NCBI RefSeq assembly: GCF_006345805.1
Contig: NC_042999.1
Location: 117,924,001 to 117,988,000, forward strand
Reading direction: 5' to 3'
Length of the DNA stretch: 64,000 nucleotides
Origin: Octopus sinensis
Lineage: Eukaryota
The notes beneath the pieces were generated by a model that searched no databases, had not been told where the DNA came from, and was given only the letters and a program-made list of their open reading frames with translations. Both the position numbers and the translations under genes were made by a program. This document shows, one piece after another, positions 21,980-55,420 of the stretch (its first letter is position 1; every line of letters starts with the position of its first letter).

Positions 21980-22019
<40 letters not shown>

Positions 22020-22033
22020 ATATATTATATATC

Positions 22034-22069
<36 letters not shown>

Positions 22070-22443
22070 ATATGTATATATTTCTCCTGTTGATTCTCTG
22101 GCACGGAAACACCTTAATTCAGTGTCTGAAATTTGGCAACCGAAATTGCTGAGCACATTGGTGTAGAAACCAGACTTAAGACATTTACTACTCGAAACTT
22201 AAGAAATTTCGAACTGTTTATACTGGAATAGCTTTGCTTTACATCGGCTACGTGTGCATAGAAACCGATATACTCGAAAGGTCCAGCTGACGAGAGAATA
22301 CATATGTGCCTGTATACATCCGTGTACCCCAAACAAACTGAATTTACTCAAGCGCAACATAAAATGTATTATTGTAAAATGTTTACCTTCGTAAATTCTC
22401 CAGATTACTTCAGTTTACATTGTATATATACATATAAATGTAT

Positions 22444-22861
22444 ATAACAAAATAGTAAATAAAACATATGCATATATACAAACATATATGTACGTACCTA
22501 CATCTATATGTATATATACATGCATATATGGGTACAGGACACCAAAAAAAAACGTCGATCACAATGAGAAACGAAAACATAAACACAAAACCAAGGAAAT
22601 GGACATTTTTCTTAAACAACGAAAAAAAAAAGACATACAACACAAGGAACATTCCCCTTCTTCAGCCGCCTCTGTTTTTTCGTTGTTTAAGAAAAATGTC
22701 CATTTCCTTGGTTTTCAGTTTATGTTTTCGTTTTTCATTGTGTTCGACGATTTTTTTTTTTTTGGTGTCCTGTACCCATATATGCATGTTATATATACAT
22801 ATAGATGTAGGTACGTACATATATGTTGTGTATATATGCATATGTTTTATTTTTTTGTTAT
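22444..22861. repeat. ~185-bp-arm imperfect inverted repeat (duplicate at ~24634-25052)
   Basis: Arms containing GGGTACAGGACACC...TTAAACAACGAAAAAA and their reverse complement flank a ~45-bp spacer. The same family occurs uninverted at ~9480-9785. Confidence 0.8.
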
Positions 22862-22967
22862 TATATGATAGAACGCATGCATCCACTTCTAAGTAAGTTG
22901 TGAATCGTTAACTCCTGCACGCATTTTTTTTTCTCTCCTTGCTTCTCTCCGTGTTTCTTTCTGTGTA

Positions 22968-23005
22968 TCTTTCTGTTGAAGAGCGCAGGCTCGAAACGTA
23001 AAAGA
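22968..23005 (+). ncRNA. Minimal hammerhead-like motif lacking helix III (copies at 25160-25197 + and 52409-52446 -)
   Basis: TCTTT-CTGTTGA-A-GAGC gcag GCTC-GAAAC GTA-AAAGA. The core deviates from CUGANGA. Confidence 0.45.
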
Positions 23006-23270
23006 CTGGTTTTATTTCTATTCCTTAACCCCATACTAATACAATTGTTTGTTTGTACTCCACCTGCCTTCGTCTTTTGTTTATTTTCGTAAAGCTTCCC
23101 TTTATATGTGCTGGAGCACCGCCTTTAGTCGAGCAAATCGACCCCACGACTTATTCTTTGTAAGCCTAGTACTTATTCTATCGGTCTCTTTTGCCGAACC
23201 GCTAAGTTACAGGGACGTAAACACAACCAGCATCGATTGTCAAGCGATGCTGGGGGTACAAACACAGACA

Positions 23271-23301
<31 letters not shown>

Positions 23302-23310
23302 CACACACAC

Positions 23311-23344
<34 letters not shown>

Positions 23345-23882
23345 CGACGGGCTTCTTTTCAGTTTCCGTCTACCAAATCCACTCACGAGGCTTTGGTCGA
23401 CCCGAGGCTATAGTAGAAGACACTTTCCCAATGTGCCACGCAGTGGGGCTGAACCCGGAACCATGTGGTTGATAAGCAAGCTACTTACCACCCCTGCGCC
23501 TATACATTGTATACATTTATTATATGCATACCACCCCCCACGTGATAATGCATGTGTATACCATATATACGAAGGATGCTGAAGGGTTCCTGCTTTAAGG
23601 GTGTCGCGAAAGGCCTGGTTGGAATCCCATCCGTCCGAGTTCTTTTACAGGACTTAGATGAAATTGAAGCACCGCTGCAATCAGTGTGTGAATTTGAGTG
23701 AGGATTATGCTGAATAAAATCATAATTAACTGATTCTCTTGAATTTTCTTTTACCCAAGCCAGGAACTTTTCAGCACGCTCTCGTATATGTGTGTATGTA
23801 TGTGTGTTTGTGTATTTCGATTACGCGCACACATATATGAACATGTCTACAATACCAACACACACAGACACATGTATGCGTG

Positions 23883-23961
<79 letters not shown>

Positions 23962-24174
23962 AGAGTTCACGAAAAAACAAAAGACGAAGACAGGTGGTGT
24001 ATAAAACAAACAGATGTATTAGTATAACGCTCAGGAATAGAAAAAGTCTTTTACGTTTCGAGAAAGAGACAGAAAAAAACAATGTGAGAAAAAATGTGTG
24101 TAGTGGCTACCGATCTATCAGGGCGACTGATATATATATATATATATGTGTGTGTGTGGTGTGTGTATATAATA

Positions 24175-24269
<95 letters not shown>

Positions 24270-25347
24270 ATATTTCTCCTGTTGATTCTCTGGCACGGAA
24301 ACACCTTAATTCAGTGTCTGAAATTTGGCAACCGAAATTGCTGAGCACATTGGTGTAGAAACCAGACTTAAGACATTTACTACTCGAAACTTAAGAAATT
24401 TCGAACTGTTTATACTGAATAGCTTTGCTTTACATCGGCTACGTTGCATAGAAACCGATATACTCGAAAGGTCCAGCTGACGAGAGAATACATATGTGCC
24501 TGTATACATCCGTGTACCCCAAACAAACTGAATTTACTCAAGCGCAACATAAAATGTATTATTGTAAAATGTTTACCTTCGTAAATTCTCCAGATTACTT
24601 CAGTTTACATTGTATATATACATATAAATGTATATAACAAATAGTAAATAAAACATATGCATATATACAAACATATATGTACGTACCTACATCTATATGT
24701 ATATATACATGCATATATGGGTACAGGACACACCAAAAAAAAAACGTCGATCACAATGAGAAACGAAAACATAAACAAAACCAAGGAAATGGACATTTTT
24801 CTAAACAACGAAAAAAAAAAAAGACATACAACACAAGGAACATTCCCCTTCTTCAGCCGCCTCTGTTTTTTCGTTGTTTAAGAAAAATGTCCATTTCCTT
24901 GGTTTTCAGTTTATGTTTTCGTTTTTCATTGTGTTCGACGATTTTTTTTTTTGGTGTCCTGTACCCATATATGCATGTATATATACATATAGATGTAGGT
25001 ACGTACATATATGTTTGTATATATGCATATGTTTTATTTATTATTTTGTTATTATATGATAGAACGCATGCATCCACTTCTAAGTAAGTTGTTGAATCGT
25101 TAACTCCTGCACGCATTTTTTTTTCTCTCCTTGCTTCTCTCCGTGTTTCTTTCTGTGTATCTTTCTGTTGAAGAGCGCAGGCTCGAAACGTAAAAGACTG
25201 GTTTTATTTCTATTCCTTAACCCCATACTAATACAATTGTTTGTTTGTACTCCACCTGCCTTCGTCTTTTGTTTATTTTCGTAAAGCTTCCCTTTATATA
25301 TGTGTATATATATATCTATATATATGAATGTGTTTGTATGCATATAT

Positions 25348-26005: not shown

Positions 26006-26030
26006 TATATGTAAATATATATATGTGCAT

Positions 26031-26437
26031 ACTCTCTTTACTTCACTTGTTTCAGTCATGTGACTGTAGTCATGCTGGAGCACCGCCTTGAGTCGAGCAA
26101 ATCGACCTCAGGACCTATACTTTGTAAGCCTAGTACTTATTCTATCGGTTTATTTTGCCGAACCGCTAAGTTATCGGGAAATAAACACACCAGTATCGGT
26201 TGTCAAGCAATGTTGGGGGGGGGACAAATACAGACACACAAACATATATACACATACATATAAATACATATATACGACGGGCTTCTTTCAGTTTCCTTCT
26301 ACCAAATCCACTCACAAGGCTTTGGTCGGCCCGAGGCTATAGTAGAAGACACTTGCCCAAGGTCCCAAGCAGTGGGACTGAACCCGGAACCATGTGGTTC
26401 ATAAGCAAGCTACTTACCACACAGCCACTCCTACGCC
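26031..26437 (-). mobile_element. SINE family 1
   Basis: Reverse complement of family 1, full length. Confidence 0.9.
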
Positions 26438-26794
26438 TATTCGAACTGTTTATACTGAAATAGCTTTACTTTACGTTGGCTACGTGTGTTTAGAAACCGA
26501 TATACTTTAAGCAAATGACTCTCGAAAGATCCAGCTGACGAACAGCCTACGCGTGTGTCTGTTTACACCGCGTACCCCAAACAAACTTAATTTACTCAAG
26601 GGCAACATAAAATGTATTATTGTAAAATGTTTACCTTCGTAAATTCTCCAGATTACTTCAGTTTACATAGTATGTATATATATGTGTGTGTGTGTGCGTA
26701 TGCATATATATATATATATTATATATATATTATATATATATATATATAATAATATATATATAATATATATATGTATATATATATAGCATATATA

Positions 26795-28938: not shown

Positions 28939-29094
28939 AGTGACTGTGTGGTAAGTAGCCTGCTTACCAACCACACGGTTCCGGGTTCAGTCCCACTGCG
29001 TGGCACCTTGGGAAAGTGTCTTCTACTATAGCCTCGGGCCGACCAAAGCCTTGTGATTGGATTTGGTAGACGGAAACTGAAAAGAAGCCCGTCG

Positions 29095-29137
<43 letters not shown>

Positions 29138-29362
29138 ATGTGTGTGTGTGTGTGTGTTTGTGTGTCTGTGTTTGTCCCCCCAACATCGCTTGACAACCGA
29201 TGCTGGTATGTTTACGCCCCCGTTACTTAGCGGTTCGGCAAAAGAGACCGATAAAATATGTACTAGGCTTACAAAGAATAAGACTTGGGGTCGATTTGCT
29301 CGACTAAAAAAGGCGGTGCTCCAGCATGGCCGCAGTCAAATGATTGAAACAAGTAAAAAAGA
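28939..29362 (+). mobile_element. SINE family 1
   Basis: Collinear with the 14351 copy and abuts the right TIR of the Tc1 element. Confidence 0.9.
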
Positions 29363-31910: not shown

Positions 31911-33418
31911 CTGCAGAGAGATTAAACTAACGGTTGAAAAACGGCGTCTTGCTAACCGCATACTGCTGTCAAAGATACTACGTATAATCCCCAGATAATA
32001 TTAAGTTTAGAGCTACATTACTTTAAAACAGCTTTAACATCCTACCAACCGTATTTTACAGCTTTATCTGGGAAATTGGAGACTCATTAAAAGTTTTCAA
32101 AGAATTTTTTTCCTTTAGATCACTCAATCTATTCTAATGAGTAAAAGAATATTTTTATATATTTTCTTAGTTATAAATGTCACATTAAAATCTATGCTTC
32201 TTATCAAACGACTTGACCGCCGTGTATTTCAACTTACTAGAAATAGTTGCCAAATCACCACCAAATAACTACCAACTACAATAACCACGCACTACACTGC
32301 GGTCTTTTAAAAGGTACACACTGTATAATGTTCAATGAATTTTGTTTAAAAATCAAATGGAGTCGATTAGAAAACCATTGATAATCAGCCTTTTTGATCT
32401 GGACTGTATAGGGCTAAACAGCAACAATAACAAAACCGATGAGAAAAGTCAAGGAAGCCAAAAGTTGAGCATCTGCGTGTTCCACACAATCTGCAAGGAT
32501 GACTAGCCACTTGTCCCTTAAATTTTACACTATCGTCTTAGAAAATGTTACGACATATTAAACAATGTAGTACTATATTACATTATGTTTGAATATAATC
32601 AATAATAGTTTGGTTTGATTAGGTCTAGTATCAAGGTAGCTAACTACTACCACTAGAACGTCTACAACTATGACAACTATGAATGCAACAACTAAAACAC
32701 AATTTTCTAACAGTAGTACAGGACCACAAATTTTAGGTGATCAAGCATTCATTCTAGGAGTCTTTTATCGACCCTCGTAGGAATGAAGAGTCTTGTGCTA
32801 CAATGACAATAATTCTAATCTAGTGCATTTTAAGCTTTGGGGTTGAAATAAACTAATCCAGTAATATGTAATGATAATCTTTATATATATAAAACTGAGA
32901 ATATGTATCTGTCTGTCTGTCTGTCTGTGTGTTTCCCTAAAACTTGAGAACTACACAACCAATTTCATTCAAATTTTACACATGCCTTACTTAGGGTCCA
33001 TGTAGTTTCGTGGGCAAAAAGAAATGTTCAACTTTTTGCCTAGGGCGAGCCCATAGCAATATCATATCTTCTCCACTATTTCAGTAGTACATGTTAAAAG
33101 TAAACAAAAAACATTTCTCTATTTTATGTCAGATACTTTCACTTTAACATAAAAAATAATAATAACAATTGAAGTATATGTAGTAAGTTTAATTAAAATC
33201 AAAAAAGTATAATATAATCGTAACATAAAAAAAGTAAAAATAGCAATTGGTATAAAATTGCATCCGTGACTTGAACTGAAAAGTGGTTTCTCATGAATGG
33301 GAATAATTAAAAATAAAATTAGCCTGCAGAAATGGAATAGTCCAGATGGATAATAAAAGATTAAATAAAGAAAAACTATTGTCTATAAAGTATACAATGT
33401 AGAGAAAAAAGAGATTTT

Positions 33419-35193
33419 CACCCACGGCGGAAATACCCAAGTGTGTTGTTATTGTGACTAGACGGAATTTTGTTGTGTAATTGATAATTATCGCGCGAGG
33501 CGTTGCCTCTCGTGTGGAAACCTTCCGAAGAGGTGAATTGACCCTCTAGTCATGGCGACTTACGCGGGGGTCACGGGAAAAAGAAGTAATGATTGCTCGA
33601 TAGTCGTGAAGGATGTTTTCTTTGAGAAGAATAAACTCAAAGAATACGAAAAGCTATTCAAAAGGGAGGGTGATAGCGTGAAGCTAATCCCCCCCGCGAA
33701 AGCAAAAGAGGACAAAGAAAACAAAACTGTAACGTATAGAACCCAGGACAAAAGTACAAAGAAACTGGCAAGAGTGGAGATAGCAGAGATCGAAAAATGT
33801 CTGGGAGACATAATGGATAAATCGACCTACGTGAGTAGAGGAAAAAAATTTGGTACGGTGGAGGTGAGATGTGCAACGGAAGAAATTGCAGCCTCACTGG
33901 CTACCACTGTTCTAAGAGGCGGAAACATTCATAATGTGGCCCTCATACAAGGGAAGAAGAGGGGTCCGGGTTAAAATCCCGATATACCCCCAGAAATAAA
34001 AACAGAGTGGCTGGCACAGCTATTCTGGGAGCAGCAGAAGAGGAAGTGGAGGTGGAATCCTTTAAGGAGTCCAATGCAGTAAACTGGAGAGGATATGGGT
34101 AGAACTGTGTTTGATGGCCAAAAAAGAGGACATTGAAAGGTTCCCCTACAGAATAGAAATCGAAGACGAGAAAACCCTCAGTGTAATTGTAGAGGGTAGA
34201 AAGCCAAACTGCTACTTGTGCGGGACAAGGGGGGCACATTAAAAAAGAGTGCCCGCTATACGAATTCATAGCGGAGTACGAGCAGGAACTTGAAGAAAGG
34301 AAGAATAAGGTAAATGAAAAAGAAAACATAGAAAAGGAGACAAAACAACAAGAGAAGGAAATAATAAGTCAACGAAAGAAAAAGATATAAAAGAAAAAGA
34401 AGAAATGGAACCAAAACAGAGTCAGGAAAAGAAAAAGGAAAAGAAACAACAGGAAAAAAACAAGAGAGAGATCAGAATCAACGAAAGAAAAGACGGACGC
34501 ACACAAAAAGAAAAAGAAAAGGAACATAAAACACGAGAGAAAGAGAGAACAGACAAAGACCAAAAGACAAGAGAAGGAGAGAAGAAAGAAGAAAAGAAAG
34601 CAAAAGAGAGAAAGAGAGAAACAAAGAGAGGAGAACAAGGAAGAAGTAAGCCCGAAAAGAAAAACGAGGGAAAACGTAGGACGAAAACAAGATTACTACA
34701 AGTTAATAACCTTCCATTTCACCCCTGAAATGAAGGAATTGACATGTAGTACGGAGGGACATGTGTGGGTCAACAGGATGACTGATCAGTGCAGGAGATG
34801 CTCTGATCCCCGAAGAAAGAGTCGCTGAGTTCCTCAGAGCAGCTGGAGAGAGTGTAATTTTTTACACGGGTGTTCGAATGAAGAGCGGCTGCCTGAGGGC
34901 TCAGTGATTGACTTTAGAGACTTGAAAGGTATTATGGAATACGTATAAAATTGTGAGAAGAGAGAGAAGAAAGAAGAAAAAAAAAAAAAAGAAAATATTG
35001 TAAAATATATGTGACGAAAATGTAACCTCTCGATTTCGGGGATCGAGTGGGCATTTACATCTCATTGTAAATATTCTTTCATATGTCATTTTTACTTTTA
35101 ATTTTTTCCTTTTCTTGTCATTTCGCTTTCTTAATTTAAGTTCCTCGATTGTATTGTCCCCTCTATGTTCGCCCCTTGTGGGTAATAATAAAA
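33419..35193 (+). mobile_element. ORF1-only non-autonomous retroelement, family A, unit 1
   Basis: Junction motif, structured 5' UTR, one ORF1-like gene and the shared 47-nt tail. Confidence 0.85.
33552..34948 (+). CDS. Family A ORF1/Gag-like protein: CCHC knuckle, E/K-rich linker, C-terminal domain (frameshifted)
   Basis: MATYAGV...RGKKFGTVEVRC...VEGRKPNCYLCGTRGHIKKECP...DLKGIMEYV*, assembled across indels and copies. Homologous to ORF1 at 44724. Confidence 0.75.
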
Positions 35194-36980
35194 CACCACG
35201 GCGGAAATTTACCCAAGTGTGTTGTTATCTGTGACTAGACAGGAATTTTGTTGTGTAAATTGATAATTATCGCGCGAGGCGTTTGCCTCTACGTGTGGAA
35301 ACCTTCCGAAGAAGGTGAATTGACCCTCTAGTCATGGCGACTTACGCGGGGGTCACGGGAAAGAGAAGTAATGATTGCTCGATAGTCGTAAAGGATGTTT
35401 TCTTTGAGATAAGAAAACTCAAAGAATACGAAAAGCTATTCAAAAGGGAGGGTGATAGCGTGAAGCTAATCCCCCCCGCGAAAGCAAAAGAGGACAAAGA
35501 AAACAAAACTGTAACGTATAGAACCCAGTGACAAAAGTACAAAGAAACTGGCAAGAGTGGAGATAGCAGAGATCGAAAAATGTCTGGGGGAGACATAATG
35601 GATAAATCGACCTACGTGAGTAGAGGAAAAAAATTTGGTACGGTGGAGGTGAGATGTGCAACGGAAGAAAAATTGCAGCCTCACTGGCTACCACTGTTCT
35701 AAGAGCGGAAACATTCATAATGTGGCCCTCATACAAGGGAAGAAGAGGGGTCCGGGTTAAAATCCCGAATATATACCCCCAGAAATAAAAACAGAGTGCT
35801 GCAACAGCTATTCTGGGAGCACAGAAGAGGAAGTGGAGGTGGAATCTTTAAGGAGTCCAATGCAGTAAACTGGAGAGGATATGGGGTAGAACTTGTTTGA
35901 TGGCCAAAAAGAGGACATTGAAAGGTTCCCCTACAGAATAGAAATCGAAGACGAGAAAACCCTCAGTGTAATTGTAGAGGGTAGAAAGCCAAACTGCTAC
36001 TTGTGCGGGACAAGGGGGCACATTAAAAAAGAGTGCCCGCTATACGAATCATAGCGGAGTACGAGCAGGAACATGAAGAAAGGAAGAATAAGGTAAATGA
36101 AAAAGAAAACATAGAAAAGGAGACAAAACAACAAGAGAAAGGAAATAATAAGTCAACGAAAGAAAAAGATATAAAAGAAAAGAAAGAAATGAACCAAAAC
36201 AGAGTCAGGAAAAGAAAAAGGAAAAAGAAACAACAGGAAAAAACAGAGAGAGATCAGAATCAACGAAAGAAAAGACGGCACACAAAAAGAAAAAGAAAAG
36301 GAACATAAAACACGAGAGAAAGAGAGAACAGACAAAGAACCAAAAAGACAAGAGAAGGAAGAAGAAAGAAAAGAAAGCAAAAAAGAGAGAAAGAGAAACA
36401 AAGAGAGGAAACAAGGAAGAATAAGCCGAAAAGAAAAACGGAAAAACGAGGGAAAACGTAGGACGAAAACAAGATTACTACAAGTTATAACCTTCCATTT
36501 CACCCCTGAATGAAGGAATTGACATGTAGTAGTAAGGAGGGACATGTGTGGGTCAACAGGATGACTGATCAGTGGCAGGAGACTGCTCTGATCCCCGAAG
36601 AAAGAGTCTCGCTGAGTTCCTCAGAGCAGCTGGAGAGAGTGTAATTTTTTACACGGGTGTTCGAATGAAAGAGCGGCTGCTGAGGGCTCAGTGATTGACT
36701 TTAGAGACTTGAAAGGTATTATGGAATACGTATAAAATGTGAGAAGAAGAGAAGAAAGAACAAAAAAAAAAAAAAAAGAAAATATTGTAAAATATATGTG
36801 ACGAAAATGTAACCTCTCGATTTCGGGGATCGAGTGGGCATTTACATCTCATTGTAAATATTCTTTCATATGTCATTTTTACTTTTAATTTTTTCCTTTT
36901 CTTGTCATTTCGCTTTCTTAATTTAAGTTCCTCGATTGTATTGTCCCCTCTATGTTCGCCCCTTGTGGGTAATAATAAAA
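35194..36980 (+). mobile_element. Family A unit 2 (ORF 35334-36735, frameshifted)
   Basis: Near-identical to unit 1. Starts CACCACGGCGGAAA. Confidence 0.85.
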
Positions 36981-38800
36981 CACCACGGCGGAAATTTACC
37001 CAAGTGTGTTGTTATCTGTGACTAGACAGGAATTTTGTTGTGTAAATTGATAATTATCGCGCGAGGCGTTTGCCTCTACGTTGGAAACCTTCCGAAGAAG
37101 GTGAATTGACCCTCTAGTCATGGCGACTTACGCGGGGGTCACGGGAAAAGAAGAAGGAATGATTGCTCGATAGTCGAAAGGATGTTTTCTTGAGAAGAAA
37201 ATAAACTCAAAGATACGAAAAGCTATTCAAAAGGGAGGGTGATAGCGTGAAGCTAATCCCCCCCGCGAAAGCAAAAGAGGACAAAGAAAACAAAACTGTA
37301 ACGTATAGAACCCAGGACAAAAGTACAAAGAAACTGGCAAGAGTGGAGAGATAGCAGAGATCGAAAAATGTCTGGAGAACATAATGGATAAATCGACCTA
37401 CGTGAGTAGAGGAAAAAAATTTGGTACGGTGGTACGGTGGAGGTGAGATGTGCAACGGAAGAAATTGCAGCCTCACTGGCTACCACTGTTCTAAGAGCGG
37501 AAACATTCATAATGTGGCCCTCATACAAGGGAAGAAGAGGGGTCCGGGTTAAAATCCCGAATATACCCCCAGAAATAAAAACAGAGTGGCTGGCAACAGC
37601 TATTCTGGAGCAGCAGCAGAGAAGAGGAGTGGAGGTGGAATCCTTTAAGGAGTCCAATGCAGTAAACTGGAGAGGATATGGGGAGAGTGAACTGTGTTGA
37701 TGGCCACAAAAGAGGACATTGAAAGGTTCCCCTACAGAATAAAATCGAAGACGAGAAAACCCTCAGTGTAATTGTAGAGTAGGTAGAAAGCCAAACTGCT
37801 ACTTGTGCGGGACAGGGGGCACATTAAAAAAGAGTGCCCGCTATACGAATTCATAGCGGAGTACGAGCAGGAACTTGAAGAAAGGAAGAATAAGGTAAAT
37901 GAAAAAGAAAACATAGAAAAGGAGACAAAACAACAAGAGAAAGGAAATAATAAGTCAACGAAAGAAAAAGATATAAAAGAAAAGAAAGAAATGGAACCAA
38001 AACAGAGTCAGGAAAAGAAAAAGGAAAAAGAAACAACAGGAAAAAAACAAGAGAGAGATCAGAATAAAGAAAAAGAAAAGACGGCACACAAAAAGAAAAA
38101 GAAAAGGAACATAAAACACGAGAGAAAGAGAGAACAGACAAAGAAAAAACCCAAAAAAAAAAAAAAAAAGACAGAGAAGGAGAAGGAGAAGAAGAAAAGA
38201 AGCAAAAAAGAGAGAAAGAGAGGAACAAAGAGAGGAGAACAGGAAGAAGTAAGCCCGAAAAGAAAAACGAGGGAAAACGTAGGACGAAAACAAGATTACT
38301 ACAAGTTAATAACCTTCCATTTCACCCCTGAAATGAAGGAATTGACATGTAGTACGGAGGGACATGTGTGGGTCAACAGGATGACTGATCAGTGGCAGGA
38401 GACTGCTCGATCCCCGAAGAAAGAGTCGCTGAGTTCCTCAGAGCAGCTGGAGAGAGTGTAATTTTTTACACGGGTGTTCGAATGAAAGGCGGCTCTGCCT
38501 GAGGCTCAGTGATTGACTTTAGAGACTTGAAAGGTATTATGGAATACGTATAAAATTGTGAGAAGAGAGAGAAGAAGAAAGAAAAAAAAAAAAAAAAAAG
38601 AAAATATTGTAAAATATATGTACGAAAATGTAACCTCTCGATTTCGGGGATCGAGTGGGCATTTACATCTCATTGTAAATATTCTCATATGTCATTTTTT
38701 ACTTTTAATTTTTTCCTTTTCTTGTCATTTCGCTTTCTTATTTTAAGTTCCTCGATTGTATTGTCCCCTCTATGTTCGCCCCTTGTGGGTAGTAATAAAA
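36981..38800 (+). mobile_element. Family A unit 3 (ORF 37120-38553, frameshifted)
   Basis: Near-identical to unit 1. Tail variant GGGTAGTAATAAAA. Confidence 0.85.
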
Positions 38801-40607
38801 TCCCACGGCGGCGGAAATTTACCCAAGTGTGTTGTTATCTGTGACTACTAGACAGGAATTTGGTTGTGTAAATTGATAATTATCGCGCGAGGCGTTTGCC
38901 TCTACGTGTGGAAACCTTCCGAAGAAGGTGAATGACCCTCTAGTCATGGCGACTTACGCGGGGTCACGGGGACGGGAAAGAGAAGTAATGATTGCTCGAT
39001 AGTGGAAAGGATGTTTTCTTTGAGAAGAATAAACTCAAAGAATACGAAAAGCTATTCAAAAGGGAGGGTGATAGCGTGAAGCTAATCCCCCCCGCGAAAG
39101 CAAAAGAGGACAAGAAAAACAAAACTGTAACGTATAGAACCAGGACAAAAGTACAAAGAAACTGGCAAGAGTGGAGATAGCAGAGATCGAAAAATGTCTG
39201 GGAGACATAATGGATAAATCGACCTACGTAGAGTAGAGGAAAAAAATTTGGTACGGTGGAGGTGAGATGTGCAACGGAAGAAATTGCAGCCTCACTGGCT
39301 ACCACTGTTCTAAGGCGGAGGAAACATTCATAATGTGGCCCTCATACAAGGGAAGAAGAGGGGTCCGGGTTAAAATCCCGAAATACCCCCAGAAATAAAA
39401 ACAGAGTGGCTGGCAACAGCTATTCTGGGAGCAGCAGAAGAGGAAGTGGAGGTGGAATCCTTAAGGAGTCCAATGCAGTAAACGGGAGAGGATATGGGGT
39501 AGAACTGTGTTTGATGGCCACAAAAGAGGACATTGAAAGGTTCCCCTACAGAATAGAAATCGAAGACGAGAAAACCCTCAGTGTAATGTAGAGGGTAGAA
39601 AGCCAAACTGCTACTTGTGCGGGACAAGGGGGCACATTAAAAAAGAGTGCCCGCTATACGAATTCATAGCGGAGTACGAGCAGGAACTTGAAGAAAGGAA
39701 GAATAAGGTAATGAAAAAGAAAACATAGAAAAAATAGAAAGGACAAACAACAAGAGAAAGGAAATAATAAGTCAACGAAAAAAAAGATATAAAAGAAAAG
39801 AAAGAATGGAACCAAAACAGAGTCAGGAAAAGAAAAAGGAAAAAGAAACAACAGGAAAAAAACAAGAGAGAGATCAGAATCAAACGAAAAGAAAAGACGG
39901 CGGCACACAAAAAGAAAAAGAAAAGGAACAAAAAAACACGAGAGAAAGAGAGAACAGAAAAGAACCAAAAAGACAAGAGAAGGAAGAAGAAAGAAAAGAA
40001 AGCAAAAAGAGAGAAAGAGAGAAACAAAGAGAGGAGAACAAGGAAGAAGTAAGCCCGAAAAGAAAAACGAGGGAAAACGTAGGACGAAAACAAGATTACT
40101 ACAAGCTAATAACCTTCCATTTCACCCCTGAATGAAGGAATTGACATGTAGTACGGGGAGGGACATGTGTGGGTCAACAGGATGACTGATCAGTGGCAGG
40201 AGACTGCTCTGATCCCCGAAGAAAGAGTCGCTGAGTTCCTCAGAGCAGCGGGGAGAGAGTGTAATTTTTTACACGGGTGTTCGAATGAAAGAGCGGCTGC
40301 CTGAGGGCTCAGTGATTGACTTTAGAGACTTGAAAGGTATTATGGAATACGTATAAAATGTGAGAAGAGAGAGAAGAGAGAAAAAGAAAAAAAAAAAAAA
40401 AAAGAAAACATTGTAAAATATATGTGACGAAAATGTAACCTCTCGATTTCGGGGATCGAGTGGGCATTTACATCTCATTGTAAATATTCTTTCATATGTC
40501 ATTTTTTACTTTTAATTTTTTCCTTTTCTTGTCATTTCGCTTTCTTATTTTAAGTTCCTCGATTGTATTGTCCCCTCTATGTTCGCCCCTTGTGGGTAGT
40601 AATAAAA
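38801..40607 (+). mobile_element. Family A unit 4 (ORF 38946-40356, frameshifted)
   Basis: Near-identical to unit 1. Tail variant as in unit 3. Confidence 0.85.
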
Positions 40608-42551
40608 TCCCACGGCGGAAATTTACCCAAGTGTGTTGTGAGTTATTTTTTGCATGTGAAACTTTGGAAAAAAACTGTTAAAAAAAATTGTCAAAAATTG
40701 AATCGCGCGAGGCGTTTGCCGCTGCGTGTTTGAACCTTTTATAGAAGGTGTGTCGACCCTCAAGTCATGGAGACTTACGCGGGGGTCGCCACAACAAAAA
40801 GTGACGAGTCACTTAGAATAAAAGAAGTGTTCTTTAGAAAAGAACAATTGAAGGAATACGAGAAGTTCGTCAAAAGGGAGGGTGACAGCGTGAAGCTGGT
40901 CCCGCCTGTGGAAACAATAGAAGAAAAAAATAACAAGACGATAACGTATAGAACGCAAGATAGAAACACGAGAAAACTGGTGAGAGTGACGATTGAAGAA
41001 ATAGAGAAATGTCTGGGGGACATCATGAAAAAAGCGACTTTTGTAGACAGAGGAAAGAAATATGGTACGGTGGAGGTGAGATGCGCAACAAGGAAAGAAG
41101 TGGCGGCCTCATTGGCTTCCACTGTCCTGAAAGCGGAAAATTTCACCATGTGGCCGACGTATAAAGGAAGACGAGGGGTACGGGTAAGAGTCCCAAAGGT
41201 GCCCCCAAATATTAAAACAGAAATGCTGGTAACAGCCATTATTGGGGCAGCAAAAGAGGAAGTAGAAATAGGGTCAATTAAGGAGACGAACGTTGTAAAT
41301 TGGAAGGGATTCGGAGTCGAGTTGTGGCTGATGGCCACAATTGAAGACATCGAAAGATTTCCCTTCCAAATAGAAATAGAAAACGAAAAAACAATTAGTG
41401 TAATAGTGGAAGGCAGAAAACCGAATTGCTACCTGTGCGGCTCAAGAGGGCACATAAAAAAGGAATGTCCGCTGTATGAATTCACAGCGGAGCAAAAAGA
41501 GACACAAAGTGGAGAGAAGGAAAACGAACACGAGGAAAGAACAGCGAAAACAAGGAAAAGGAAATAACGGAGAAACAACAAGAGAAGGGAAGTAACAGCG
41601 CACTGAAGGAAAATGAAAACAAAGGGAAGAAGATAGTAGAAAAGGAGCAAAATTCACAGGGTGCAGAAGTAGAGGAGAAGGAGCCAAGGCAGAAGCAAGA
41701 GAAAGAAAAGGAAAGTACATTAAAGGAAAGAGAAAAAGCAGGAAAAGAACAAGAGAAGGAACAGAACCAAGAGAAAGGAAAAGATGGTATGCAAAAAGGA
41801 AAAGAAACAACAGGAAAGGAACTTAAGGCACAGGGTAGAGAGACGGCAGACAAAGAGCCAAAAAGACAAGAGAAGGAAAAAGAAAGAAGAGAAAGCAAAA
41901 AGAGAGAAAGAGAGAAACCGAGGGAGGAGAAAAAAGAGGAAGTAAGTCCTAAGAGAAAAACTAGAGAAAACGCAGGTACGAATAGAAAATTCAAATACTA
42001 TGGAACGTTGATCCATCACAAACACTGTGAGGAGATGGAAAATTTAATAAGCGAAACAAACGGATATACGTGGGTCAGGATGGGCACCGAATGGAAAGAA
42101 ACAGGTGCACTCGTCCACGAGAACGACGCCGAGGCGTTCATCGAGGCAGCTGGCGAGAACGTGTTAAAACATATGAAATGCCGACTTCCAAGGTGGCCTC
42201 GAACGATGGAAATTTACTCAGATTTGGTAGACATAATGGAGTATATATAAAAGAAAAGGTATTATGAAAACTTTAATTTGGAAATGATAAAAGAACTTTA
42301 AATTCGGAAAAAAAAAAAAAAAAAAAAAAGAATGTTGAACTTTGTAAAACTTTTTGAAATGTATGTTGAAAATGTATAAAATGTTTTATTTGAAAATATT
42401 GTTGACGAATAAAAATAAATGACGAAATGTAACCGCTCGATTACGGGGATCGAGTGGGCATTGCACCACATTGTACAAACTTCATAATTCATTATTCATT
42501 TTCCCGATTGTATTGTCCCATCTATGTAGCCCCTAGTGGGTAATAATAAAA
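40608..42551 (+). mobile_element. ORF1-only non-autonomous retroelement, family B, unit 5
   Basis: Same architecture as family A with diverged sequence. Tail at 42506-42551. Confidence 0.85.
40767..42250 (+). CDS. Family B ORF1/Gag-like protein (one frameshift near 41532)
   Basis: METYAGV...CYLCGSRGHIKKECP...DLVDIMEYI*. Confidence 0.8.
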
Positions 42552-44488
42552 CACCACGGCGGAAATTTACCCAAGTGTGTTGTGAGTTATTTTTTGCATG
42601 TGAAACTCTGGAAAAAAACTGTTAAAAAAATTGTCAAAAATTGAATCGCGCGAGGCGTTTGCCGCTGCGTGTTTGAACCTTTTATAGAAGGTGTGTCGAC
42701 CCTCAAGTCATGGAGACTTACGCGGGGGTCGCCACAACAAAAAGTGACGAGTCACTTAGAATAAAAGAAGTGTTCTTTAGAAAAGAACAATTGAAGGAAT
42801 ACGAGAAGTTCGTCAAAAGGGAGGGTGACAGCGTGAAGCTGGTCCCGCCTGTGGAAACAATAGAAGAAAAAAATAACAAGACGATAACGTATAGAACGCA
42901 AGATAGAAACACGAGAAAACTGGTGAGAGTGACGATTGAAGAAATAGAGAAATGTCTGGGGGACATCATGAAAAAAGCGACTTTTGTAGACAGAGGAAAG
43001 AAATATGGTACGGTGGAGGTGAGATGCGCAACAAAGGAAGTGGCGGCCTCATTGGCTTCCACTGTCCTGAAAGCGGAAAATTTCACCATGTGGCCGACGT
43101 ATAAAGGAAGACGAGGGGTACGGGTAAGAGTCCCAAAGGTGCCCCCAAATATTAAAACAGAAATGCTGGTAACAGCCATTATTGGGGCAGCAAAAGAGGA
43201 AGTAGAAATAGGGTCAATTAAGGAGACGAACGTTGTAAATTGGAAGGGATTCGGAGTCGAGTTGTGGCTGATGGCCACAATTGAAGACATCGAAAGATTT
43301 CCCTTCCAAATAGAAATAGAAAACGAAAAAACAATTAGTGTAATAGTGGAAGGCAGAAAACCGAATTGCTACCTGTGCGGCTCAAGAGGGCACATAAAAA
43401 AGGAATGTCCGCTGTATGAATTCACAGCGGAGCAAAAAGAGACACAAAGTGGAGAGAAGGAAAACGAACACGAAGGAAAGAACAGCGAAAACAAGGAAAA
43501 GGAAATAACGGAGAAACAACAAGAGAAGGGAAGTAACAGCGCACTGAAGGAAAATGAAAACAAAGGGAGAAGATAGTAGAAAAGGAGCAAAATTCACAGG
43601 GTGCAGAAGTAGAGGAGAAGGAGCCAAGGCAGAAGCAAGAGAAAGAAAAGGAAAGTACATTAAAGGAAAGAGAAAAAGCAGGAAAAGAACAAGAGAAGGA
43701 ACAGAACCAAGAGAAAGGAAAAGATGGTATGCAAAAAGGAAAAGAAACAACAGGAAAGGAACTTAAGGCACAGGGTAGAGAGACGGCAGACAAAGAGCCA
43801 AAAAGACAAGAGAAGGAAAAAGAAAGAAGAGAAAGCAAAAAGAGAGAAAGAGAGAAACCGAGGGAGGAGAAAAAAGAGGAAGTAAGTCCTAAGAGAAAAA
43901 CTAGAGAAAACGCAGGTACGAATAGAAAATTCAAATACTATGGAACGTTGATCCATCACAAGCACTGTGAGGAGATGGAAAATTTAATAAGCGAAACAAA
44001 CGGATATACGTGGGTCAGGATGGGCACCGAATGGAAAGAAACAGGTGCACTCGTCCACGAGAACGACGCCGAGGCGTTCATCGAGGCAGCTGGCGAGAAC
44101 GTGTTAAAACATATGAAATGCCGACTTCCAAGGTGGCCTCGAACGATGGAAATTTACTCAGATTTGGTAGACATAATGGAGTATATATAAAAGAAAAGGT
44201 ATTGTGAAAACTTTAATTTGGAAATGATAAAAGAACTTTAAATTCGGAAAAAAAAAAAAAAAAAAGAAATGTTGAACTTTGTAAAACTTTTTGAAATGTA
44301 TGTTGAAAATGTATAAAATGTTTTATTTGAAAATATTGTTGACGAATAAAAATAAATGACGAAATGTAACCGCTCGACTACGGGGATCGAGTGGGCATTG
44401 CACCACATTGTACAAACTTCATAATTCATTATTCATTTTCCCGATTGTATTGTCCCATCTATGTAGCCCCTAGTGGGTAATAATAAAA
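42552..44488 (+). mobile_element. Family B unit 6
   Basis: Near-identical to unit 5 with a few substitutions. Confidence 0.85.
42710..44190 (+). CDS. Family B ORF1/Gag-like protein (one frameshift near 43568; consensus of units 5 and 6 ~493 aa)
   Basis: The 288-aa and 153-aa ORF-track pieces join when the base present in unit 5 is restored. Confidence 0.8.
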
Positions 44489-44723
44489 CACCACGGCGGA
44501 AATCAATTTTTTGCGTTATTAGTAAGTTGATATATAATTTTGCTCTCGTACTATTATCTCTGTTATTATATACTGTTGATCTACCTGTTTTTGTCTATTG
44601 TTGTCTAACGGACGAAGCCAGCCTTCGCGCGAAGACTTCGCGTTGGTGTTCCCCCCCTCAGTGGGGGAAAACTACAAGTAATTTGGATTTACCAAAGGCT
44701 TGTTATAAAGCCATTTGTTCAAG

Positions 44724-46094
44724 ATGGAGTCCCCCATCACTTATTCGCCCGTGACGAGCGAGGATGAATACCCGGCGTTGTCGCCAAGTAAAAAAGAGGC
44801 GTTGTCGCCAAGAAAAAAAGAGGCGCTGTCGCCGAAGAAAAAAGAGGCGGCGTCGCCCAAGAAAATGGAAAAACCAGTACCAGCATCAACTCCAGCAAAA
44901 AAATTCGCTGAAGTGGCTGGGAAAAAGATCAAAAAAATAAATATAGACAATTTTAAAAAATTTGCAGACTGCGTAAAAAAAGAAGGCACAGAAGTGACTG
45001 TGGCCACAAACATACAAATACATGACGATATAGAGAAAAAAAGAATAATATATAAAACTTACGACACAACGAAAAAAATGATCCAAAAAATCGAAGAAAA
45101 AAAAATAGAGTCTTGTCTAAAACCGTTTATGGACAAAATATAAACAGAGGAAAAAGATACGGCACAGTGGAGGTGCGTTTTACTACGGAGGATATAGCGA
45201 AGAAACTATCGATGGAGCCGATCAAAGCGGAAAACATTGTCTTACTACCATTGTATAAAGGAAAAAGGACGTCAAAAATTTCAATGAACAACATACCGCC
45301 AGAGGCTGATGCTGAATGTCTGGTGGCAGCAGTGATGGTAGGTCTGGAGGAAAAAATAAACATCCTCCAGGCCACAGTGGAGGAAGAGGATTTTTGGAAA
45401 GGCCAAAAAATAGTGATAGCCATTCAGGCGGAGGTGCAAACACTGGAAGAAATTCCAGAAACGGTAAAGATTAGTGAAGACGAGAAAATAACAGTGTTCG
45501 TGGAGGGCAGGAAACCGAGGTGCTTCGGCTGCGGCAAGAAGGGGCATGTAAGGGCGGAATGCCAACCCCAACCCAAACCGCAGGAAGCACCTAAGCCAAA
45601 AGAAAAAGAAGACAATGTGTCACCAGAAGCAGCGTCAGATGGCCCAGAAGGGAAGACTGAAGGTGTGGAGGTGACGGTGACAGCAGAACCAGCGGCGGGG
45701 AAAAAAAAAGAGCGAGGAAAAGATAAATGAGGAGGGGTGGAAAAAAATTATCGGAAAAAAAAAGAAAAACGGAAACCACCCCTCCCAGAGTAATTTTAAA
45801 AAAGAAAAAAGAGTCAATGAACTCATATATGGCCGTAAAGGCAGCAAATAGCAGACTCGGAAACGTGTTGGCAGCCATGGCCAAAGTGGAGAAAGTAGAG
45901 AAAAAAAACGACTTTGTAATTTACAGAATAGGCCGGAAGGATTACGGCGGATAAAGTCAGAATTCTTCCATGACGTAGGCCCACTTAGATTGGATGTGAC
46001 ATCTCCACATATATTCGAGGGCCTACGTCAGACTCCCCCACGAGGCCCAGAAAAAGAGTTAGAAGAACAAGAGAAAACCGAACCACTGATATAA
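44724..46094 (+). CDS. ORF1p nucleic-acid-binding protein (frameshifted)
   Basis: SPxK repeats, RGKRYGTVEVRF, VEGRKPRCFGCGKKGHVRAEC (CX2CX4HX4C). The 3' end is inferred across frameshifts. Confidence 0.8.
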
Positions 46095-46102
46095 GGTAAG
46101 TA

Positions 46103-49100
46103 ATGGATTACATTTATGTTGGTTGTTTGAATGTGCGCGGCCTGGGAGCAGACTGGAAGCAAGGTCGCTTCCTGCATGATATCAGGTCGCGTAATTTAGA
46201 TGTTATTGTTGCTACAGAAACCCGGTTAGAGGGGCCAAGAGGTCTACTCCCGCTGTTTGACGGCTACGAGAGTTTTTTATCTCCTGGCAGTCCTACAGGC
46301 GGGAGTGGGGTGTTGGTCCTATTAAAAAGAAACCGGGTTTCTGAGAAAAAGTTAATTTTTGCAGATCCAGAAGGTAGGCTGGTCGTCATGGATTTGACGT
46401 TCAGTAACGGTAAAGTTATCAGACTGGTTGCAATTTACGCACCCAACCATACAGGGCAAAGTGATTATTTTCGTGAACTAGAAAACTTTCTTGGTACTTC
46501 GCATTCATTAGTGGTGCTAGGAGACTTTAACACAATTTGCAAAGCGGATGTAGATTATGTTGGCTCGTGTCCAGATAGAAAAGGCAACAGTGGCTTCATG
46601 GAACTGCTAAGCCGCTTTGAGCTAGCAGATCCTTATAGGCTGGAATTTCCGAACGCTCCATTGTGGACATGGTCAAACAGCGACGGATCTTCCAGGTCAT
46701 ATTTAGATAGAATACTAATTAGAAAAGTAGACAGTAAAATAGCTAAGTGTCCACAGTTTTACCCGATCAGCTACAGTGATCATAAAATGGTCACTTGTAA
46801 GCTTGACATAGATAAGGTTAAAAATAGAGGATCCGGTTACTGGAAACTTAATACGTCCCTTTTGGCGATTAAGGAGTACAAAGACCGGATTAGGAATATA
46901 ATTCAGAGGGCACTATCTGGTACCATCATTATAACAAATGGTGGTACGCCCTCAAACGAGCCATCAAGTTTGAGTCTATTAGATATAGCATAGGAGTAGT
47001 GGCTAGAGAGGCTAGAAGGGAAACTACTCTAGTTAAGGAATTAGAGGAAGCCATGAAAACTGGCTCTGCGGCTCAGGTGGCGTCCAAGAGACTGGTGTTA
47101 AACCAGCACCTCGAGGCCAAACACATGGGCTGCATTGTCAGGGCTAGAATCCGTCATATGGGATGTGAAGGAATCAACGCCGTGAGATGGGCCCGAGTGG
47201 TGGAAGCTCAGCATGGTAACGATGCCACGATTCGATCTTTGACGAACCAACAAGGTGAGTTGATAAACGAACCCGAGGAGATGTGTGAGGCCTTTCAGGA
47301 GCACTTCGCTCAGCTTTTCGGTGAGTGCGGCGGACTGGATAGGAGGAGGGCCTTTACGGACCTACTCGACGGTCTGCCGCGCTTATCGGGGCGAGATGCG
47401 GAGGGCTGTGAAGGGCCAATCACGCCTGGGGAGGTGTTTGAGGCAATGGCGGACTGCGGCGCGGGCAAGGCGCCGGGTTTGGATGGTCTGCCCTATGAGT
47501 TATATAAGAGTATGCCAGACTTGTTCGGGCACCTACTGGCGGAGGTCTATGCGAACTGGCAGCAGAACGGGCTTATACCCAGATCTGTGCGCCGGGGAGT
47601 AGTGACTCTCGTCAGAAAGGACCCGAGCAAGGGGGAGTGCATTGATAATTTCAGGCCCATCACTCTGCTAAACACAGAGTTGAAGATTTTGGCCAAAGTG
47701 TTATCGAAAAGATTGGCGCGTGTCGCGGATGGTCTGATCGGAGAGGCACAGACATGTGCCGTTCCGGGCAGATCCATTCAGGATAATCTCCATCTAATGC
47801 GGTACACTATAGAGGGGTTTAATAGTGATTCTGGCAAGGGTGGGGCACTGGTCCATTTAGACCAATCTAAAGCTTTTGATAGGGTCGACCATCGTTACCT
47901 GGTGTCTGCCCTGGCACAGTTCGGGCTGAGCCTTGGCTTCCTCAGGTGGATTATCCAAATTTATGATAACATCGACTCGGTAGTTCGGGTGAACGGCTTC
48001 TTGTCGAAGCCGTTCAAAATCAAACGCTCGGTTCGTCAAGGGTGTCCGCTCTCCCCGCTTTTGTACGTGATGGCTCTTGAGCCATTACTGCGAAAACTGA
48101 GCGGCATCCCGAGACAGCCAGGTAATGGAAAATCAGTGTCAGCGTACGCGGATGACATCACCATCATCGTAACCGAAATGGACCACCTATGTAAAGTAGG
48201 CAAGGCCATAGAGGTTTACGAGACGGTGACAGGAGCAAAAGTTAATCGCGAAAAGTCAGTCGGCTTGCAACTCGGCACCTGGAGAGGCAAGTCGATGCCT
48301 CCTGACAGCGTCGTGGGACGTTGGACGGAGGGTCCGATTAAACTGCTAGGGGTCTGGTTCGGTCCAGACCTCCAAATAGAGAAGAATTGGGGCGAGGTAA
48401 CGAGCAAGGTGGCTGCAGTAGCCAAGACCTGGTCTTGGCGGTGGCTATCCCTGAAAGGGAGGGCGGAGGTGGCCATGTGTTTATCGCATCGGTTATCACC
48501 TACCGCCTTTCCGTCGTTCCTTGCCCTGATTCGTGGTTGATCAAGTTGGAAAGACAGCTCTTCTACTTCTTGTGGAAGGGCGGGAAACCACTTGTGAAAC
48601 GCTCTACTTGCTGTCAACAACCGTTAAAGGGTGGGCTAGGGATGCCTTGGCTGATGATGCGCAGACATGCGCTGAGGTTAAGACATCTGTGGCTCTACCT
48701 GGATGGTGAACGGGTGTGGTCTTCGCTAGCAAAACTGATGTTTCCCAAGTTCACTAGTTTCGGTGGATGGGAAACCTGGCTGAATCGTAGATCGAAACTT
48801 GGTACTTGGTACACGGAGTGTCGCAAGGCTCTCCTGCTATTCCGTCGCTCGGGCAACGCCTGCGGTGGGGGTTCCACCACATTCCTCTATAGAGGGTTGG
48901 TAGAGGCGGAATGTGAAGATACCTTGGGGGAAACCCTAGGTCTCGACGATAATCAGCTGGCCAGTCTGTTCCGACGTACGTTCGAGCCGAGGACACTGGA
49001 CAACTTCCAGAAGTCCCTGGCATGGCAATGCTACAGAGGAGCTCTACCTGTTCGGGATAAACTCGCAAGGCACGGTGGCCAAGACAGTCCGATATGTCCA

Positions 49101-49496
49101 AGATGCGGGCGGGATAGGGAAACCGTCCCGCACGCGATTGTTCATTGTCCGGACGTGTCTGAGGTGTGGGTTTATGCCGAACACCTGTTGTCAGGTACAC
49201 GAAGAGTACAGCTGTCGACTGAGTCGATTACAAAAATTGACCCACCGGATTTCCTCGTGAATGAAGGTAAGTTTCGTTTTCTCGTTGTAGTAGCAATTGC
49301 GAAAGAGGTGATATGGAAGACGAGAATGAAAGGTTTACAGTCAGGCAAGTTCATCTCCGGCCCTGGTTTGATGAACTATTTCATCTTTCACCTGAAAAGG
49401 AAGATAGGGCTGGAATGAATATGCCTGACTAGGAGAGTGTATGAAGAACGATGGAAGGATGTAGCACGAAAGTTGCGAGTGAAAGATACAACATAA
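46103..49496 (+). CDS. ORF2p: APE endonuclease, reverse transcriptase, C-terminal zinc finger (two frameshifts; in-frame TGA at 49416)
   Basis: LNVRGL, ETRL, GDFN, YLDRI, SDH (APE). PGLDG, FRPITLLN, DQSKAFD, RQGCPLSP, YADD (RT). CPRC...ETVPHAIVHC (Zn finger). Confidence 0.93.
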
Positions 49497-50239
49497 ATGT
49501 AATACCAAGTGCAACCAAAAGTATCAGTGGGGAGGCGGGGCTCGTGGGGTCCGAGCTAAACCCGCACCCACTCCACCCGTAACGTCTTCCGGTCTGTCCC
49601 ATCATTCGATTTCTGTCCATTTATTGTAATTCATGAAAATTTTTAAAATTCGATTTAGTGTAAAAACCCATTCGTTTGTCTGACCCAGATTGTATTGTCC
49701 CATCTATGTTCGCCCCTTGTGGGTAATAATAAAATCACATGGAGGAAAGCACCTTCGAAAAGTGTCTTGGTGTGACCATGAAAGATATCTAATCAGAGGT
49801 GGTAAATTCGCCACAATAGAAGCAAGGTTCGAGTCAACGGAGCGTACAAGGGAGTACTCGACTCGAACTTGCAAAGTGGAAATATTTTATATCTGGGACG
49901 TAGGACGTCCCGGAAAAAGTTAAATATGCCCCCCTCCCGAAGTAGATGTAGGCTGGATTGTAGCCACATTTCTATACAAGAGGGAGGACAAGATACAATT
50001 GATTGTAATTACAAGAGACGGGCTAACAATTCCAGTCCGTTATATATTTTGAGTATTGTTATCACTAGCGATATCAAGATATAACTTTGTATTTTGTATT
50101 TTATGTGTAGATGTATATATATAGATGTACATGTAATATGTACACATATATATACACACATTTATACATGCACTAGCACTATGACCCGGCAACGACGGGT
50201 CTTTAATGCTAGTAATGTAATATTTGTAGCACTATTTAA

Positions 50240-52588: not shown

Positions 52589-52971
52589 TGAGCGTGTATG
52601 TGTGTGTATGTATTGTGCGTATGTGTATATGCATGTTTGCATTGTAAAGATGGTTGCTTTTGTTGATCATCCTGCAGGACGAAGAATAAAGGTCTGATGA
52701 ACACAGTAGACTCAGCGCCCATTCAACAACTGGGATTCAGACACCACTAGTCTTTGTTTAGATATCTTTCTAGAAGGATTAACACCCGCTTCATTGGGAA
52801 CTTGGAGATATTGCTCTTGCTTGTTTCTGGATTTCTTTGTTTTGTAGTCGAGAAGTTTACGCGTCTTTTGAAAGTTGTTATTTACTTTATATTTTAGCAC
52901 AGTCATTGTATCTTTCAAAGCACAGTCCAAAGACTAAATGGACATGAATCTGTCTGTCAGTGATGAATTTC

Positions 52972-53196
52972 CTCTTTTACTTGTTTCAGTCATTTGACTG
53001 CGGCCATGCTGGTGTACCACCTTTAGTCGAGCAAATCGACCTCAGGACTTATTCTTTGGAAGCCTAGTACTTATTCTATCGGTTTCTTTTGCCGAACTGC
53101 TAAGTTACGGGGACATAAACACGCCACCATCGGTTTTTAAGTGATGTTGGGGGGGACAAACTCAGACACACAAACTCACACACACACACACACACA
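52972..53196 (-). mobile_element. 3' half of SINE family 1
   Basis: CTCTTTTACTTGTTTCAGTCATTTGACTGCGGCCATGCTGG... through the (CA)n tract. Confidence 0.85.
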
Positions 53197-54472: not shown

Positions 54473-54943
54473 ACTTGTCTAATCTATATCTTTCTGTCTG
54501 TCTTCTTTGTCTGCCTCTCTCTCTCTCTCACTCTCTCTCTCTATATATATATACACACACATATAGTTGTGCATGCATACGCATACACACATTAAAAGAC
54601 TTGGAGTGAAAAAGAGAGAAAGAGAAAGAGAAAGAGAAAAAAGGAGACCATGAGAGTGGGAAACAATGAGAGTAACAGACATACACAAAAAAGGAAGATA
54701 TATTAATTTCGTAACCAAGTCAAAAAATTCAGTAGTTGGAAATGAAACCCCAACTTTATTTTAGTTCTGTCGTTTTCACAAATTAGATGGTTATTGTAAT
54801 GACGAGCTATTTAAAAAATTAATAACCCCAACCCCGTTCGAAAAATAGGGCACACTCCGGGATTATTAGACAAACATATAACCGATAACACAGCATAATA
54901 ATATATGATTTCTTTAAATTGATATCTTTAATAATATCTTTAA

Positions 54944-55367
54944 TTTGTTTCAGTCATTTGACTGCGGCCATGCTGGAGCACTGGCCTCAGTCGAACAAAT
55001 CGACCCCATGATTTACTCGTTGTAAGCCTAGTGCTTAACCTATCGTCCTCTTTTGTTGAACCAAGTTACGGGGACGTAAACACACTAACATCGGTTGTCA
55101 AGCGATGGTTGGGGGACAAACACATCGGTTGTCAAGCTATGGTGGGGGGACAAACACAGACACAAAACGCATACATACACACACACATGCACACACACAC
55201 ACATATAATACGACGGGCTTCTTTCAGTTTCCGTCTACCAAATCCATTCACAAGGCTTTGGTCGGCCTGAGGCTATAGTAGAAGACGCCTAAGATGCCAC
55301 GCAGTGAGACTGAACCCGGAACCATGTAGTTAGTAAGCAAGCTACTTACCACACAGTCACTCTTGCG

Positions 55368-55369
<2 letters not shown>
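54944..55369 (-). mobile_element. SINE family 1 with an internal ~34-bp tandem duplication
   Basis: ACATCGGTTGTCAAGC.ATGGT.GGGGGACAAAC occurs twice at ~55089-55155. Confidence 0.85.

Positions 55370-55420
<51 letters not shown>

Follow-up and report, generated by a model that had tools for sequence, protein, structure and literature searches.

We identified, in Octopus sinensis, two types of ORF1-only units (A and B) that most probably represent dispersed families of non-LTR retrotransposons with an ORF1 under purifying selection, which likely borrow the ORF2 protein of a LINE carrying the same 3' tail and using the same site in a Helitron-like repeat. The ORF1-only anatomy, the dispersal, the selection, the shared tail, the shared site with target duplications and the mixed arrays were observed directly. 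The ORF1-only lifestyle is known from HAL1 and HeT-A, and what is new is its setting at one site inside a Helitron-like repeat.

Array anatomy

The window, that is, the whole stretch of 64,000 nucleotides that was analysed (contig NC_042999.1, positions 117,924,001 to 117,988,000 of the forward strand), contains six ORF1-only units in head-to-tail order, four of type A and then two of type B (33420-44488), followed by a 5.2-kb LINE, and the array as a whole splits a ~1 kb repeat with Helitron-type ends. The single ORF of each A or B unit encodes a CCHC knuckle, a K/E-rich linker and a C-terminal domain of ~95 aa, and a nearly identical tail of ~50 nt ends all seven elements of the window. The features are as follows.

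32878..33415, + strand: left half of the Helitron-like host repeat, with 5' TC after A; the 3' part is a portion of a decayed L1/Tx1-type ORF1 relic
33420..40607, + strand: four type A ORF1-only units of ~1.79 kb apiece, indel-ridden in the window, each closed by the shared ~50-nt tail
40608..42551, + strand: B unit 5; ORF1 at 40767-42250, with a single frameshift near 41533
42552..44488, + strand: B unit 6; ORF1 at 42710-44190, with a single frameshift near 43567
42710..43426, + strand: N-terminal region of the unit 6 ORF1, with two RRM-like domains, both predicted, and the CCHC knuckle; purifying selection is strong here
44358..44410, + strand: block of the 3'UTR, common to families A, B, B2 and E and unmatched in the autonomous 3'UTRs tested; the sequence itself shows an inverted repeat in it
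44440..44488, + strand: 3' tail common to the autonomous LINE and unit 6, 92-94% over ~50 nt; likely a recognition signal for ORF2p
44489..44503, + strand: junction between unit 6 and the LINE, a variant copy of the target duplication present at the start of every unit
44491..49735, + strand: full-length L1/Tx1-type LINE with ORF1 (CCHC) and ORF2 (APE endonuclease, RT, zf-RVT), frameshifted in the window
49737..50212, + strand: right half of the Helitron-like host repeat, with target sequence, the remainder of the ORF1 relic, a hairpin and terminal CTAG before T

Elsewhere in the window, a dispersed ~400-nt repeat of SINE-like size occurs in about nine copies on both strands (14340-14750, 17460-17820, 19350-19820, 20800-21250, 23109-23500, 26030-26440, 28940-29360, 52970-53196 and 54937-55380), positions 20838-25302 hold a direct duplication of ~2.27 kb with 95% identity, and positions 16000-19000 are rich in CTG/TGT/CAA trinucleotides, which could encode a Gln/Thr-rich region on the minus strand.

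Reading frames

The initial annotation had drawn attention to the peptide KPNCYLCG, for which five of the eight codons are changed between A and B, all synonymously; both 24-nt strings were located, at 34201, 35986, 37788 and 39600 in the A units and at 41418 and 43358 in the B units. Among the other motifs reported there as conserved, KREGDSVKL, GTVEVRCAT and YKGRRGVRV are kept in all six units and EIEKCLGDIM in four of the six, with 2 to 5 codons differing between A and B in each of these four. The motifs were selected for identity and thus provide no test by themselves.

Units 5 and 6 carry one distinct frameshift apiece, as had been noted, namely a single missing base near 41533 and 43567, respectively, and unit 5 has one additional codon. 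The intact B ORF of ~493 aa, previously read from a consensus, exists in natural copies at 8 of the 30 top B loci, which makes the consensus unnecessary, and an unbroken ORF of 486-525 aa is found at 13 of the 30. Given these eight natural copies, the two frameshifts are private to units 5 and 6; frameshifts common to all copies, which had been named as speaking against selection, were not what we found. Unit 6 differs from its counterpart at locus L003 by one substitution and one indel, and the base absent at 43567 is present in contigs of three of the four sequencing runs, the fourth having no depth there. Window A units 1-4 differ among themselves by 47-64 indels versus 13-23 substitutions, and none of the six window units has a stop codon created by substitution. 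Judged from these counts, with indels far in excess of substitutions and no substitution stops, the indels of the A units are likely long-read errors.

Dispersal and the insertion site

Across the 28 contigs examined, the A/B families comprise 133 units in 80 arrays. Thus, the label 'satellites' used initially was mistaken: A and B are non-autonomous retrotransposons that are dispersed and targeted and lie in arrays of mixed composition (for example, A,B,A,B,B2 and D,B,LINE,A,D), and not long homogeneous local arrays devoid of dispersed mobile copies. Runs of a single subfamily are also present, with nine B units on contig C1 and five A units with one odd junction in common on contig C9. These runs, and the report that dimers of transposable elements can expand to arrays (10.1101/158386), are what would be expected of satellites expanded in place by unequal crossing-over, with coding conservation as a relic, but the spread over so many arrays and contigs, the solo copies with target duplications, the mixed orders and flanks that are older than the inserts make this reading very improbable and local expansion a secondary step at most.

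The sequence next to 115 of the 133 units is another family unit, a LINE or the right half of the host; the other 18 adjoin other sequence, several with other targets. Intact 5' ends were found in 112 of 125 units. The strict target motif, which omits known variants, follows 172 of 545 exact tails, and 355 exact empty target sites were identified; the target of the LINE is a preference rather than a strict specificity.

At 24 loci, the host flanks diverge by 0.046 per site versus 0.024 for the B inserts, the two being uncorrelated (r = -0.03), and in 246 of 276 pairs divergence is greater in the flanks than in the inserts. Flanks about twice as divergent as inserts indicate repeated targeted insertion. 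The same host flanks do recur at many copies, as they would if a Helitron-like host had been replicated together with its cargo, but such passive spread is rejected by the uncorrelated excess of flank over insert divergence, and the incongruence of flanks and inserts at the 24 loci, cargo that varies by locus and the exact empty sites likewise stand against it; we consider it extremely improbable.

A locus-specific target variant is present at both ends of the array at L040. In many cases the target copy on the left is not identical to the one on the right, which means that the 5' junction is not simply a duplication, and the 5' target copy often has variants that recur at other loci, which suggests that it travels with the RNA.

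Helitrons typically have a 5' TC and a 3' hairpin plus CTRR and insert between A and T. The host in the window shows these hallmarks, and among the empty-site loci, strict patterns were matched at the 5' end in 10 of 12 and at the 3' hairpin in 4 of 12. The host contains a decayed L1/Tx1-type ORF1 fragment (window 33350-33415 and 49737-50030; L051-L062), within which the main target site lies. Alternative targets (L014, L015, L021, L022, L026) include ORF2 of another LINE family and other repeats, and older subfamilies (L147, L148, L155, L156, L030) occupy a second site of the Helitron-like host, ~290 nt deeper inside it. Some B copies have ~18 nt at the 5' end resembling a former target, which resemble the tags of HeT-A.

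The likely autonomous partner and the order of units

The tail of the A/B units matches that of the neighbouring LINE family at 92-94% over ~50 nt versus about 79-87% for a second family; folding of single sequences yielded no common fold of the tail. The neighbouring family has copies with an intact 1131-aa ORF2 elsewhere in the genome. The domains of its ORF2 (Pfam PF03372, PF00078 and PF13966) are a set common to the whole L1 group; the homologues retrieved for this ORF2 carried no usable clade names.

Within arrays, ORF1-only units lie 5' of a LINE 32 times and 3' of it 9 times (p=4e-4). The LINE is the last unit in all seven examined arrays that have a LINE and a visible right half of the host, the array on contig C14 (L041/L042) being a counter-example. 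The window, C7 and C1 have the same A(n) B(m) LINE order and one junction variant with different flanks, and pairwise distances among passengers are correlated with those among the LINEs next to them (B, n=23, rho 0.44, p=0.0003; A, n=8, rho 0.79, p=0.004). From this polarity, the shared order and the distance correlation, it is conceivable, if rather unlikely, that ORF1-only units ride 5' of the LINE through read-through RNA or template jumping, such that one targeted insertion brings several families. If so, the passengers would obtain ORF2p in cis while bringing their own divergent ORF1p. Insertion waves with growth on the left side would yield the same polarity pattern, and a rare-allele test for co-transfer of B and LINE gave 0 to 2 of 251 pairs, with no excess over chance (p 0.2-1.0). 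Near-identical matches at C7:96.72-96.75 Mb and C7:96.83-96.85 Mb suggest an array that is duplicated or was assembled twice.

Selection on ORF1

Purifying selection on the protein, as proposed initially, was borne out by natural copies in place of consensus sequences. Over residues 1-240, 14 intact A and 13 intact B copies gave a dN of 0.176, a dS of 1.37 and a ratio of 0.13 (bootstrap 0.07-0.20, one pair), well away from 1; because the intact copies had been selected by frame length or protein similarity, omega is biased downwards, and the 14 A ORFs came out of 20 regions selected chiefly for the length of their frames. The A-B ratio is 0.23 in the linker, NG86 dS is saturated in the C-domain, and the window A and B units compared with each other gave 0.11-0.15 over 161-209 codons. 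For the N-domain, maximum likelihood point estimates of omega were 0.19 overall, 0.36 among A copies and 0.19 among B copies. The corresponding estimates for the C-domain, where selection within families is weak, near neutral, were 0.52, 0.71 and 0.81.

The A-versus-B ratio alone is insufficient, because it could stem from selection in autonomous ancestors. We therefore rely on variation within families, counted in 42 B copies for which the C-domain, not intactness, served as the selection criterion, and in 33 A copies. In the N-domain of B, shared variants comprise 5 nonsynonymous and 21 synonymous changes (pN/pS 0.07) versus 31 and 32 for private variants (0.27; Fisher p=0.0097), and in A, the shared pN/pS is 0.15 versus 0.35 for private variants (p=0.0065). 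The neutral expectation under transition bias is 0.65-0.85, and the B linker, at 0.73-0.74, is in line with it. Selection on transposing lineages predicts just such a stronger constraint on changes that are inherited than on those that are private, and purifying selection on the ORF1 of A and of B continues within each family. Private variants are also below neutral (0.27-0.37); undersampling could explain this, as could selection per copy, and the sample cannot fully account for it.

Loss of ORF2

In 86 loci and the window, 133 units of families A, B, B2 and E run through to the tail with no ORF2 inside, and six further matches cover only the first half of a unit that internal indels have divided. 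Among 85 knuckle-bearing frames, an endonuclease follows in the same unit after none of the 59 frames of the clade, some of which are duplicated between loci, versus 13 frames of other ORF1 types. None of 20 deeper or divergent relatives has an attached ORF2, and 15 of the 20 have the 3'UTR block. The absence of ORF2 holds among the matches listed, which a rare autonomous element of A or B type could escape.

Against 13 autonomous ORF1s, A, B, B2 and E form one clade (support 100/100), and the ORF1s of elements with endonuclease and reverse transcriptase in the same genome are 27-39% identical over ~200 aa (shorter for frameshifted B2 copies). The four families have a 3'UTR block of ~80 nt (77-85%) close behind the stop codon, unmatched in the two autonomous 3'UTRs tested. 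The four families have as their sister an Octopus bimaculoides protein, P0012 (support 100/99), which in a quick tree groups with seven decayed copies from the octopus genome (SH-aLRT 83), none with an attached ORF2. The loss of ORF2 is likely old, since no examined member has ORF2 and the O. bimaculoides protein lies inside the wider clade. A single loss, before A, B, B2 and E diverged, is likely, and one old loss is the simplest reading. With a quoted split at 13.3-33.5 Mya (PMC13282606), the place of this protein in the clade makes a radiation of ORF1-only families over more than 10 Myr likely.

ORF2 loss has been repeated in Drosophila telomeric elements (10.1101/2025.06.09.658640), and A and B could by analogy be separate, fairly recent deletions of two autonomous lineages, now extinct or unsampled, with the low dN/dS dating from their autonomous phase. 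Selection is evident inside each of the two families, however, and at least four families and a deeper group are all ORF1-only with the 3'UTR block in common, so that we hold separate deletions to be very improbable. As for the initial claim of a long life without ORF2, the monophyly of the ORF1-only families, their shared 3'UTR block and the low pN/pS within families argue for selection after the loss and for a loss that is likely old, evidence that was not available to the initial annotation.

Another ORF1-only group, D (knuckle RAPRCYKCG), forms tandem runs of its own with ~1.7-kb spacing and is often first in arrays, for example, in D-B-LINE order (L049:1061-2735; C6:70544866-70559564). 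Group D may represent a separate loss of ORF2; a tree with all ORF1-only families including D as monophyletic had a p-AU of 0.46.

The ORF1 protein

The N-domain was modelled from a 45-row alignment with a pLDDT of 83, versus 39 for the whole ORF1 with single-sequence AlphaFold. The best Foldseek matches of the N-domain were tandem-RRM proteins (E 1.7e-5, TM 0.2-0.4), and for the first domain, VIA gave Z up to 9.6 and an rmsd of 2.1 across 75 residues. Thus, ORF1 is predicted to be an RNA-binding protein of RRM-RRM-CCHC architecture. The nearest named homologs are Octopus proteins, and copies of the A/B ORF1 stand in public databases as uncharacterized Octopus vulgaris genes. One cluster of near-consecutive O. 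vulgaris accessions (P0001; CAI9715245-CAI9715251) consists of A-type ORF1s annotated as uncharacterized and is likely one array. A 1437-nt contig covers B, from a sequencing run whose identity as RNA is a guess; none of the runs that contain these sequences is recorded as RNA, which speaks neither for nor against expression.

The private variants below neutral and one feature match at 0.90 to a ZCCHC3-domain cluster, a lead only, would be compatible with host selection that keeps the ORF1 protein as a domesticated RNA-binding gene, similar to L1TD1. There are, however, more than 100 young dispersed copies, no single fixed locus stands out and shared variants are under stronger selection than private ones, making domestication highly improbable. 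The A/B units show no sign of host function, and nothing in the analysis points to a host role in the neural or gonadal tissues whose RNA-seq and proteomic data had been suggested as a check.

Comparison with known systems

HAL1 (half-L1) elements are non-autonomous, encode only ORF1p and had several origins in mammals (PMC5753468), and in guinea pig HAL1 the coding capacity was kept for about 29-44 Myr, which was read as ORF1p acting in cis and ORF2p in trans (PMC3627910). Octopus A and B are likewise non-autonomous and encode only ORF1p; like elements of HAL1 type, they have L1-group ORF1 homology, share the 3' end with a partner, are dispersed with target duplications and have kept coding capacity. 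The octopus units differ from HAL1 in their invertebrate host, site targeting, mixed head-to-tail arrays and ORF1 of predicted RRM-RRM-CCHC type, mammalian ORF1 being of the coiled-coil type, and, unlike in HAL1, the identity between their ORF1 and the ORF1 of the likely partner is only about one third. We assume an origin independent of the named vertebrate HAL1 families.

Among Drosophila telomeric Jockey elements, including HeT-A, ~40% of 396 families are reported to be ORF1-only, such families array head to tail with ORF2-bearing ones, and ORF1-only lineages can found new ones (10.1101/2025.06.09.658640). The octopus units are similarly ORF1-only and form head-to-tail arrays with an ORF2-bearing LINE, but HeT-A belongs to the Jockey clade and is telomeric, whereas the octopus units are of L1/Tx1 type and have target duplications and mostly intact 5' ends, in interstitial arrays closed by host flanks. 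HeT-A and Ag-Sponge have been described as ORF1-only LINEs, the latter being CR1-derived and non-autonomous (PMC5786205); Ag-Sponge thus resembles A and B but is of a different clade, and the portion of that source consulted describes no targeting for it.

Tx1L and Tx1D of Xenopus and Tx1-Mar of crocodilians are Tx1-clade LINEs that target a non-autonomous DNA transposon, and sequential insertion of crocodilian SINEU-3 produced tandems sandwiching the target duplication (PMC4494074). The octopus system differs from these in its Helitron-like host, a site in an internal ORF1 relic and protein-coding passengers. Site preference as a source of tandems was already known (10.1101/158386). The main text of an O. 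vulgaris repeat paper does not mention ORF1 or non-autonomous elements, with L1-Tx1 in table rows only. In the literature searched, which did not extend to Repbase and Dfam, where the families may already be catalogued, we found no description of these octopus elements or of the combination.

Proposed mechanism and implications

In the model that we favour, A and B as ORF1-only families served by a LINE partner, the RNA of each unit would produce its own ORF1p and be coated by it in cis, and lineages whose ORF1 is damaged would therefore leave fewer new copies. The ORF2p of the presumed partner would bind the tail, nick the target and reverse-transcribe the RNA. Every insertion would regenerate the target, allowing units of several families to stack head to tail, and single-family runs were likely lengthened further by local duplication or transfer of several units.

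To conclude, we regard a HAL1-like system with a targeted, array-building partner as real and well supported. A/B copies annotated as O. vulgaris genes should be masked. This system extends the lifestyle of HAL1 and HeT-A to a mollusc and to site-targeted elements of L1/Tx1 type, among which ORF1-only families have radiated. Because the ORF1s of passengers and partner are only about a third identical, it also offers a natural experiment on why ORF1p is required in cis.
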